From a virus (taxonomy: Duplodnaviria; Heunggongvirae; Uroviricota; Caudoviricetes): a DNA stretch of 2,378 nt. Every line of letters begins with the position of its first letter. The stretch's first letter is position 1. Made by a program: the position numbers and the translations under genes. The notes under the pieces are model-generated. The model was not told the origin of the DNA and made no database searches. It saw nothing but the letters and a program-made list of their open reading frames with translations. Below, piece after piece: positions 1 through 2,190 of this stretch. Where the stretch lies: the IMG/VR virus record IMGVR_UViG_2548876939_000010. One strand, written 5' to 3'.

Positions 1-231
1 TCAGGAGTGATTTTCATTGTTCAACCGCCCCGCCCGCTTCGTCTTACGATATTCATCATAAACTTTGGGATCATACTGAAGCTCCCCGCCAGATGCCTCC
101 TGTAGACGCATCGCGCGACCTTCGGGAACTAAATCCCCTTTCCAGCTATAAAGCGAAGCCAAACGAATACCTGCTGCTTGTGCAAGTTTTGTTTTTGAAC
201 CGAAATACAAAAGAGCGTCAGTTTTAAGCAT
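1..231 (-). CDS. dicC: DicC, small Cro-like regulator (76 aa) of the prophage division-control switch
   Basis: Complete minus-strand ORF: ATG is the complement of 229-231, stop TGA is the complement of 1-3. The translation MLKTDALLYFGSKTKLAQAAGIRLASLYSWKGDL... matches E. coli DicC as I recall it. A Shine-Dalgarno AAGGTG (complement of 238-243) lies 6 nt upstream of the ATG. It is divergent from dicA, as in lambdoid immunity regions. Confidence 0.9.
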   Translation of the reverse strand: MLKTDALLYFGSKTKLAQAAGIRLASLYSWKGDLVPEGRAMRLQEASGGELQYDPKVYDEYRKTKRAGRLNNENHS

Positions 232-245
232 TTAAAACACCTTTA

Positions 246-265
246 TTGTTAGCCATGACTAACAA
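246..265. promoter_or_regulatory. Operator-like inverted repeat TTGTTAG-CCATGA-CTAACAA in the dicC-dicA intergenic region (candidate DicA/DicC operator)
   Basis: Seen directly: 7-bp perfect arms (246-252 and 259-265) around a 6-bp centre. It shares the core TGTTAGCCATG with the sites at 757-772 and 795-808 and overlaps the -10/start region of the putative dicC promoter. Confidence 0.5.
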
Positions 266-292
266 AATAGATGTTAACAAAAACATAGTCAA
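264..292 (-). promoter_or_regulatory. Putative sigma70-type promoter for dicC
   Basis: Read on the minus strand: TTGACT (complement of 287-292), a 17-nt spacer, then TATTTT (complement of 264-269). The predicted transcript start sits inside the operator-like palindrome and is followed by the dicC Shine-Dalgarno and ATG. Motif match only; not experimentally anchored. Confidence 0.4.
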
Positions 293-314
293 TACGATTT
301 AGCATTAGCTAACT

Positions 315-722
315 ATGGAAACAAAAAATTTAACTATCGGCGAACGCATTAGGTATCGTCGGAAAAACCTCAAACACACCCAAAGGTCTCTTGCTAAAGC
401 CCTGAAAATCTCCCATGTGTCTGTATCACAATGGGAACGGGATGATAGTGAACCTACAGGGAAGAACCTTTTTGCCCTCAGCAAAGTATTGCAATGCTCA
501 CCAACATGGATTCTATTTGGCGATGAAGACAAGCAACCAACACCACCTGTTGAGAAGCCAGTTGCCTTATCCCCCAAAGAACTAGAGCTCCTTGAGCTGT
601 TTAATGCACTGCCAGAATCAGAACAGGATACCCAGCTCGCCGAAATGCGAGCTCGAGTAAAAAACTTCAATAAACTCTTTGAAGAATTACTAAAAGCCCG
701 TCAGCGGACAAATAAAAGATAA
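315..722 (+). CDS. dicA: DicA, HTH (XRE/cI-like) repressor of the dicB operon, 135 aa
   Basis: ORF 315-722 translates to METKNLTIGERIRYRRKNLKHTQRSLAKALKISHVSVSQWERDD..., with a classic N-terminal helix-turn-helix signature (QRSLAKALKISHVSVSQWE). It matches E. coli DicA as I recall it in length and sequence. No alternative in-frame start preserves the HTH. Confidence 0.92.
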   Translation: METKNLTIGERIRYRRKNLKHTQRSLAKALKISHVSVSQWERDDSEPTGKNLFALSKVLQCSPTWILFGDEDKQPTPPVEKPVALSPKELELLELFNALPESEQDTQLAEMRARVKNFNKLFEELLKARQRTNKR

Positions 723-756: not shown

Positions 757-772
757 ATGTTAGCCATAACAT
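757..772. promoter_or_regulatory. Operator-like inverted repeat ATGTTA-GCCA-TAACAT downstream of dicA
   Basis: Seen directly: 6-bp perfect arms (757-762 and 767-772) around a 4-bp centre. It contains TGTTAGCCAT, the same core as the sites at 246-265 and 795-808. Confidence 0.4.
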
Positions 773-782
773 ACAAAATCAC

Positions 783-811
783 TTGACCTATATGTTAGCC
801 ATGGCTAATCT
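783..811 (+). promoter_or_regulatory. Putative dicB-operon promoter with operator in the spacer
   Basis: TTGACC at 783-788 (5/6 match to the -35 consensus), a 17-nt spacer, then TAATCT at 806-811 (a weak -10, 3/6). The perfect palindrome at 795-808 lies in the spacer and -10, the expected layout for a repressor-controlled promoter. The -10 assignment is uncertain. Confidence 0.35.
795..808. promoter_or_regulatory. Perfect 14-bp palindrome TTAGCCATGGCTAA (candidate DicA operator at the dicB-operon promoter)
   Basis: Seen directly: the sequence at 795-808 equals its own reverse complement and is preceded by TG, giving the TGTTAGCCATG core shared with 246-265. It sits 81 nt upstream of the ydfA start. 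Confidence 0.5.
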
Positions 812-888
812 TATTTGCATCAACACACCGCACGGTGTTCTCAGCAAACAGTTCCGCTACCCCGGCGTTAAGGGGAAATGAGGTCAAC

Positions 889-1044
889 ATGGATACTATC
901 GATCTTGGCAACAGCGAATCTCTGGTATGTGGCGTGTTCCCCAACCAGGACGGTACGTTCACCGCGATGACGTATACCAAAAGCAAAACGTTTAAAACCG
1001 AATCTGGAGCGCGTCGCTGGCTGGAAAGAAATTCAGGTGGGTGA
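889..1044 (+). CDS. ydfA: YdfA-like small protein (51 aa), first gene of the dicB operon
   Basis: ATG at 889 is preceded by GAGG at 880-883 with a 5-nt spacing. It translates to MDTIDLGNSESLVCGVFPNQDGTFTAMTYTKSKTFKTESGARRWLERNSGG with stop TGA at 1042-1044. The ORF track's GTG start at 835 has no ribosome-binding site and would add 18 unsupported residues. Length and sequence fit YdfA of the Qin prophage as I recall it. Confidence 0.8.
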   Translation: MDTIDLGNSESLVCGVFPNQDGTFTAMTYTKSKTFKTESGARRWLERNSGG

Positions 1045-1763: not shown

Positions 1764-1816
1764 ATTCTGGTGACATTTGGCGGTATCAGTTTTACTCCGT
1801 GACTGCTCTGCCGCCC
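1764..1816 (+). ncRNA. dicF: DicF small regulatory RNA (about 53 nt; antisense inhibitor of ftsZ translation)
   Basis: The sequence ATTCTGGTGACATTTGGCGGTATCAGTTTTACTCCGTGACTGCTCTGCCGCCC followed by a TTTTTT run is near-identical to DicF RNA as I recall it, with at most a couple of substitutions. It lies between ydfC and dicB, as in the K-12 operon. The ends are defined by processing and termination, so the boundaries are approximate to a few nt. Confidence 0.85.
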
Positions 1817-2001: not shown

Positions 2002-2190
2002 ATGGAAAAGTTATCATGTAATGCCAGCACGTCTGAACTTCGTTTCGAAATTGGCGTTATCACTGGAGACAAAACATTTATTGAAGACGCCATTAAGCAG
2101 AGAAAACTCGAGCAGGACCTGTTAAATGAAGTATGCATTCCTTCAATGCTGGCTCGTCTGGACCTGCTGCAAAAAGGATATAAACAATGA
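2002..2190 (+). CDS. dicB: DicB-family cell-division inhibitor (62 aa; MinC-dependent inhibitor of FtsZ ring formation)
   Basis: ATG at 2002 is preceded by GAGGA at 1990-1994 with a 7-nt spacing. It translates to MEKLSCNASTSELRFEIGVITGDKTFIEDAIKQRKLEQDLLNEVCIPSMLARLDLLQKGYKQ with stop TGA at 2188-2190. It has the same 62-aa length and operon position as K-12 DicB and shares recognisable blocks (FEIGV, EDAI, RK, LLN, SMLARL, KG..Q), but appears substantially divergent. The ORF track's upstream TTG extension from 1894 has no ribosome-binding site and is rejected. Confidence 0.8.
   Translation: MEKLSCNASTSELRFEIGVITGDKTFIEDAIKQRKLEQDLLNEVCIPSMLARLDLLQKGYKQ

Follow-up and report, generated by a model that had tools for sequence, protein, structure and literature searches.

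The immunity region of the window

The stretch of DNA analysed here (the window, 2378 bp) is a segment of a Qin-type lambdoid prophage and comprises its immunity and early-left region. The identity of the locus rests on its open reading frames, on annotated E. coli matches, and on Pfam and Rfam (Table 1). The DicA of the window differs from K-12 DicA at a single position, residue 43, which is D in the window (codon at 441-443) and in the Citrobacter and Serratia homologues, and G in K-12. The same immunity region, 98% identical, is found in the complete phage PhiR42_1, where the genes are annotated cI/Cro. By eye, the DicB of the window looks clearly divergent from that of K-12. The operators discussed below set the switch-on of the toxic operon of the prophage (DicB, DicF, YdfD), and through it bear on cell division, phage resistance and persistence-like states.

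Table 1. Features of the window and of the promoter dicBp, with positions counted from the first letter of the window.
Feature	Position	Strand	Sequence	Remarks
dicC	1-231	-		Cro-like regulator, 76 aa; identical to K-12 DicC; Pfam P22_Cro 2e-11
Oc, reference operator	246-265		TTGTTAGCCATGACTAACAA	dicC-dicA spacer; overlaps dicC -10
Om (probable)	271-286		ATGTTAACAAAAACAT	match to published Om assigned from sequence; repeat family D4
Oa (probable)	298-311		TTAGCATTAGCTAA	form TTAG-N6-CTAA, 3 mismatches; match to published Oa assigned from sequence
dicA	315-722	+		CI-like repressor, 135 aa; Pfam HTH_3 1e-15
Hairpin across dicA stop codon	713-745	+	TAAAAGATAAC-N11-GTTATCTTTTA	perfect 11-bp inverted repeat
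OB1, promoter-distal dicBp operator	757-776		A-TGTTAG-CCATAA-CATACA-A	dyad 766/767; about -52 from predicted start
-35 hexamer of dicBp	783-788	+	TTGACC	best -35 in 723-835; invariant in all E. coli-type haplotypes
OB2, promoter-proximal dicBp operator	792-811		A-TGTTAG-CCATGG-CTAATC-T	dyad 801/802; about -17 from predicted start
-10 hexamer of dicBp	806-811	+	TAATCT	right arm of OB2; 17 bp after -35
Probable transcription start region	818-824	+	CATCAA (818-823)	7-8 nt past -10
ydfA (DUF1391)	889-1044	+		first gene of operon driven by dicBp
ydfB	about 1047-1174	+
ydfC	1204-1422	+
dicF	1765-1816	+		Rfam DicF 77 bits
dicB	2002-2190	+		Pfam 7e-39
ydfD	2187-2378	+

The best full-length E. coli match of the window has 94.9% identity, and K-12-like strains have about 93%. 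Its right two-thirds (851-2378) are 95-96% identical to prophages of O157:H7 and O145. Since the part to the right of about 851 is closer to the O157/O145 prophages than the full-length match is, the alignments suggest a mosaic produced by recombination, with its junction near 851. The same position marks the onset of homology to many E. coli prophages with other immunity regions. Further downstream, between dicF and dicB, Rfam matched the stretch 1830-1979 to the sRNA family STnc100 below threshold (33.6 bits where the gathering score is 47; E = 5e-5).

For the comparison across strains and genera we used 80 IMG/VR prophage loci (DicA 94-100% identical) together with K-12, a Citrobacter locus (74% DicA identity) and a Serratia locus (65%). 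We relied on IMG/VR contigs because a scan of genome contigs yielded only 6 loci; the resulting set, mainly IMG/VR prophage contigs, is redundant and biased to sequenced isolates. The dicA-ydfA spacer itself is present in at least 700 E. coli genomes. One contig, L003 (JAIIUG010000151.1, 2521 bp), is binned as a Collinsella sp. MAG and encodes a DicA 100% identical to that of the window. In all likelihood this contig comes from an E. coli prophage and was mis-binned into that MAG.

Two probable operator dyads over dicBp

The earlier note had pointed to two operator-like palindromes overlapping a candidate promoter of the dicB operon, and the strings it quoted are present where it placed them: ATGTTAGCCATAACAT at 757-772, whose 6-bp arms enclose a spacer of 4 bp; TTAGCCATGGCTAA at 795-808, a palindrome perfect over 14 bp; and the TTGACC and TAATCT hexamers, 17 bp apart. 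The core that it described as common to both sites and to a site in the dicC-dicA spacer, TGTTAGCCAT, occurs in exactly three copies, at 247, 758 and 793. Only 0.01 copies are expected, and 0 of 200 shuffles gave three. Taken singly, the palindromes are within chance: in 15% of simulated windows there was a perfect 14-bp palindrome, and 50% had an inverted repeat of the 6-N4-6 type. We judge the sites real because the core repeats and is conserved in the Citrobacter and Serratia homologues, not because of palindromy alone.

The register of the first site had to be redrawn. The form ATGTTA-GCCA-TAACAT is specific to the haplotype of the window: it has 6/8 symmetric pairs here, while K-12 and the 94% lineage have 3-5/8, and its arms use two hypervariable positions, 768-769. 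We rejected it as the functional dyad. The register conserved in 39 haplotypes, in Citrobacter and in Serratia is of the Oc type, TGTTAG-N6-CNNACA, spans 758-775 and is centred at 766/767; here 5/9 pairs are symmetric in the window and up to 6-8/9 in K-12 and the 94% lineage. In this common register the centres of the two sites, which had been put about 37 bp apart, are separated by 35 bp, with a range of 34-36 bp in all lineages. We call the two sites OB1 and OB2; the site name 'Ob1' was not found in our literature search.

Each of the two sites has 2 mismatches in the 12 arm positions of TGTTAG-N6-CTAACA. OB1 has a consensus left arm and a degenerate right arm (CATACA), and it lies in register with Oc within a 38-nt direct repeat (231-268 and 742-779). 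OB2 spans the promoter spacer and the -10, includes the perfect palindrome, and has a degenerate right arm, CTAATC, that doubles as the -10. By reading, OB1 is identical to the Oc of the window at 16/20 positions and OB2 at 17/20. A search for TGTTAG-N6-CTAACA with up to 3 mismatches returned four matches in the window, against 0.89 expected, and these are only Oc, Oa, OB1 and OB2. At this threshold no third operator of the Oc pattern was found in the dicA-ydfA spacer. The inverted repeat at 713-745 was also considered as a third operator and set aside, since an RNA hairpin with compensatory changes explains it better.

Across 39 spacer haplotypes, the invariant or near-invariant blocks are TGTTAG (758-763), AT (766-767), CA.ACAAAA (770-778) and CTTGACC (782-788), followed by TGTTAG (793-798), AT (801-802) and CTAAT (805-809). 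Overall, the arms, the central AT, the -35 and the -10 are invariant or nearly so, and the flanks and centres vary. The TTAG-N6-CTAA of OB2 is conserved in all lineages. Downstream of the Citrobacter and Serratia DicA homologues, OB1, OB2, the -35 and the -10 are found again with spacings of 35-36 bp and 17 bp, in surrounding sequence that has diverged, and the operator layout is kept down to homologues of 65% identity. The earlier note proposed that the number and spacing of operators in this variant would set the threshold; that these differ between variants is contradicted by the alignments: both are without variation between strains and fixed across genera, and only the operator centres vary.

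The TTGACC-N17-TAATCT promoter matches at 5/6 and 3/6 positions, with A2 and T6 of the -10 present. A simple promoter scan did not call it, because TAATCT matches at only 3/6; nevertheless, no other 5/6 -35 in the 723-835 fragment is followed at the canonical 17 bp by a -10 with A2 and T6. The -10 is TAATCT or TAATAT in E. coli haplotypes, with TAACCT and TAATTT seen once each. At the same place Citrobacter has TTGCCA-N17-TAATCT and Serratia TTGCAA-N17-TAACAT (spacers counted by reading). An alternative promoter within 723-835, TTACCA-N18-TAACAT (4/6 + 4/6), was rejected because it is not conserved in the 94% lineage. The CATCAA downstream of the -10 is identical in all five diverged sequences, and from its position we infer that the +1 of dicBp would lie near A819.

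On the upstream side, the inverted repeat across the dicA stop codon folds as RNA with -11.8 kcal/mol (z -5.1), and a diverged lineage, L080, keeps the fold by compensatory changes (z -5.7). This hairpin, which precedes dicBp, may serve as the terminator of dicA and would then insulate the promoter. On the downstream side, the 5' UTR (819-892) showed no sign of a fold (z = +0.45), and its one consensus hairpin has just 4 bp. Within the ydfA leader, the 851-876 block GTTCCGCTACCCCGGCGTTAAGGGGAA is conserved out to Citrobacter and Serratia, with that weak 4-bp consensus hairpin as its only structure. Past the leader block of the Citrobacter locus (L005, about 2110-2125), CGCTCTTTAAAAA follows a GC-rich hairpin; it resembles a boxA such as that of lambda nutL. 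No CGCTCTTTAAAAA-like sequence stands before ydfA in the window.

Variation at the operator centres

The four bases that flank the central AT are hypervariable in all three operators, Oc (253-254 and 257-258), OB1 (764-765 and 768-769) and OB2 (799-800 and 803-804). They obey a simple rule, YYATRR, with C or T on the left and G or A on the right in nearly any combination, and the changes are transitions only. The rule is also true of Citrobacter and Serratia. We compared these centres with three other classes of sites, counting parsimony steps on a tree for which the remainder of the region was used. Of the 12 centre positions 11 were segregating, with a mean diversity of 0.278 and 3.17 parsimony steps per site. 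The corresponding values were 3 of 36 sites, 0.004 and 0.08 for the operator arms; 50 of 156 sites, 0.046 and 0.24 for other intergenic positions; and 6 of 62 sites, 0.018 and 0.10 for the four-fold sites of dicA. The centres thus carry about 30 times more changes per site than the dicA four-fold sites (Fisher p = 3e-8 for segregating sites), figures to be read in view of a centre class that was defined after the data had been seen and of a redundant sample of loci. Among 50 loci with D43 DicA, where the repressor is essentially identical, there were 31 different combinations of Oc, OB1 and OB2 centres.

The P22 repressor C2 binds as a dimer to 18-bp operators and senses four central bases that it does not contact, with a KD ranging from 4.3 to 57.6 nM (PMC4267663). 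The N-terminal domain of DicA is homologous to P22 C2 (1adr, 2r1j, 3jxb; E about 1e-19). Tuning of affinity by the centres is plausible because such non-contacted bases shift the KD of P22 C2. We therefore suggest, tentatively and as something short of the likelier outcome, that the centre bases of every DicA/DicC operator could act as a fast-evolving tuning dial. If selection acts on the affinity for DicA or DicC through indirect readout, as in P22 C2, each natural Qin-type prophage would have its own threshold for firing the toxic operon. On the other hand, the hypervariability of the centres may come from mutation or micro-recombination rather than from selection. If it is mutational, the centres would form a hotspot of transitions, arising for instance by deamination in extruded cruciform loops or in protein-distorted DNA.

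We also compared DicA residue 43 (D or G) with the operator centres and saw no clear covariation; the G43 loci are of low diversity and probably represent one lineage. By a hand alignment to P22 C2, residue 43 presumably matches S41 of that repressor; E44, which helps to sense non-contacted operator bases, follows three positions later. The hypervariable centres are a modest new lead, and provide a natural allelic series for indirect readout and for threshold setting in a bistable switch.

Repression of dicBp and comparison with known switches

Published work constrains where the repressor acts. In K-12, a dicBp-lacZ fusion on a 113-bp fragment showed a 22-fold rise on deletion of dicA, an in-locus fusion rose 165-fold with the antirepressor Rem, and deletion of dicC left dicBp activity unchanged (PMC10448788). 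The primers of the 113-bp fusion (O-PR241 and O-PR242) map to 723-835 of the window, and therefore the promoter and the DicA response of the K-12 allele lie within these 113 bp, in which OB1 and OB2 are the only Oc-like sequences. ChIP-seq of K-12 DicC has a site inferred on the dicBp side of dicA (PMC11430063), and OB2 fits the motif published there, TT(A/C/T)G...C(G/A/T)AA. K-12 Oc, TTGTTAGTCATAACTAACAA, is bound by DicA in vivo in a sequence-specific manner, and a single A-to-C change abolishes binding (PMC3441716). In the same in vivo assay DicA did not bind Om, and DicA alone did not bind Oa; coordinates for Om are absent from that paper. Likeness to Oc is therefore no guarantee of binding. 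The right arm of OB1 (CATACA) departs from the consensus at the position where the A-to-C change abolished binding to Oc. On this region, PMC10448788 states that both spacers 'contain three operator sequences', which it likens to those of lambda PR and PL with reference to Bejar et al. 1988. DicA, it adds, 'is predicted to bind' operators that overlap the promoter; the prediction of operators at dicBp dates from 1988. In the more recent literature surveyed here, we found no footprint, EMSA or ChIP of DicA on OB1 or OB2.

Because the fragment repressed in K-12 maps to 723-835 and the DicC ChIP-seq site falls on this side of dicA, we consider it very probable that OB1 and OB2 are operators of the PL/OL type at dicBp, which drives the ydfABC-dicF-dicB-ydfD operon in a Qin-type lambdoid prophage. 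Each operator would be an 18-20 bp dyad of the Oc form, TGTTAG-YYATRR-CTAACA, and a dimer of DicA, through its P22-C2-like N-terminal domain, would occupy each of the two. Repression would be steric: OB2 takes up the promoter spacer and supplies the -10, both of which a DicA dimer on it would cover, keeping RNA polymerase out. OB1, which immediately precedes the -35, is probably an auxiliary site. The Cro-like DicC probably recognises the same TTAG-N6-CTAA cores, and is thus probably a further user of the two sites, one absent from the earlier note. Direct readout probably does not extend to the central YY/RR bases, which would tune affinity instead, as in the P22 and 434 operators.

Lambda operators comprise three sites about 24 bp apart (about 2.3 turns), and the cooperativity of lambda CI is mediated by an S24-type C-terminal domain. 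In the 135-aa DicA, the Pfam matches are all N-terminal HTH families, and residues 75-135, where an S24/LexA-like oligomerisation domain was looked for, gave none; a RecA cleavage site is likewise absent from DicA (PMC10448788). The OB1-OB2 distance of about 3.3 helical turns differs from the lambda-type spacing. The need to seat the -35 hexamer between OB1 and OB2 explains the conserved spacing as well as cooperation does. Lambda-style cooperative binding of DicA at the two sites, which had been part of the original proposal, is not supported.

These features bear on the possibility that only OB2 works and that OB1, like Om and Oa, is a relic with weak function or none, with no pairwise cooperation. 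OB1 has only 5/9 symmetric pairs in the window, and its right arm is consensus in no lineage (CATACA, CAAACA, CGAACA or CTCAAT). That Om and Oa are not bound by DicA, that DicA has no S24-type domain and that the two sites are some 3.3 turns apart all point the same way. However, a relic should have decayed, whereas the left arm of OB1, its central AT and the C that follows are conserved from E. coli to Serratia amid diverged sequence. The OB1 centre shows the same YY/RR behaviour as those of Oc and OB2, and the distance to OB2 is held at 34-36 bp. We regard a relic OB1 as unlikely, if worth keeping in mind.

A different view is that the sites serve mainly DicC, and that repression of dicBp by DicA is indirect or acts through another part of the fragment. 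The DicC ChIP-seq site and the fit of the DicC motif to TTAG-N6-CTAA (PMC11430063) would be in line with this, and so would the statement in one paper (PMC7567609) that the evidence for a DicA site at dicB is low and its location unknown. Yet dicBp activity does not change without dicC and rises 22-fold without dicA on a 113-bp fragment that holds no Oc-like sequence besides OB1 and OB2, and Oc, which has the same arms, is bound by DicA. This makes a main role of DicC in place of DicA very improbable. The chance that the palindromes are accidents or leftovers of a duplicated spacer with no regulatory role is slighter still, to the point of being hardly credible. It draws on the chance frequency of each palindrome taken singly and on the 38-nt direct repeat that joins 231-268 and 742-779, but the 10-mer core with its three exact copies, the invariant arms beside hypervariable centres, the conservation across genera and the mapping of repression to the 723-835 fragment all speak against it, and as far as the alignments can tell the pattern of conservation already contradicts it.

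The reading as operators of DicA over the promoter of the dicB operon is the part of the earlier note that essentially stands, by their locus, their likeness to Oc, the overlap of one of them with the promoter and the 22-fold repression of the K-12 fragment; the register of the first site and the 37-bp spacing do not. As written, that finding is a rediscovery, since the dicBp promoter, its repressor and the existence of operators are already in the literature. What is added here is a base-level, conservation-backed definition of both dicBp operators and their register, together with the constancy of operator number and spacing over genera and the unexpected hypervariability of the centres.

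The closest known system is dicBp of the K-12 Qin prophage, which has the same locus, promoter and gene order; the alignment that had been proposed as a check shows a nearly identical 170-bp dicA-ydfA spacer. By reading this alignment, the operators show five base differences from K-12, four at hypervariable centre positions and the fifth at the base just before OB1 (C in the window, T in K-12). The centres are CCATAA in the window and CTATAG in K-12 for OB1, CCATGG and TCATGG for OB2, and CCATGA and TCATAA for Oc. The perfect 14-bp palindrome of OB2 in the window is due to base differences from K-12. Oc shares with OB1 and OB2 the arms (TGTTAG / CTAACA), the 18-20 bp dyad and the YYATRR centre, and it too overlaps a -10. 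It differs in having two consensus arms, whereas OB1 and OB2 have one degenerate arm each, and published DicA binding is to Oc only.

The arrangement resembles OL/PL and OR/PR of lambda in that the repressor gene lies between operator clusters for divergent early promoters, with the proximal operator overlapping the promoter core. As with lambda CI and Cro, the repressor and a Cro-like protein probably use the same sites. Unlike lambda, dicBp has two sites, their centres 35 bp apart and the -35 lying in between, DicA is a protein of 135 aa with no S24 or RecA-cleavage domain, and, in contrast to lambda CI, DicA is relieved by the antirepressor Rem. Bistable behaviour has been reported for this switch, with a baseline of spontaneous switching of 1.16% (PMC10448788). 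The likeness to P22 C2 lies in the homologous DNA-binding domain, in the 18-bp dyad and in central bases that are not specified base by base. The operator arm is ATTTAAG in P22, as against TGTTAG in the DicA sites. In addition, the DicA sites have an invariant central AT and variable positions 7, 8, 11 and 12, whereas the non-contacted block of the P22 operator comprises positions 8-11.
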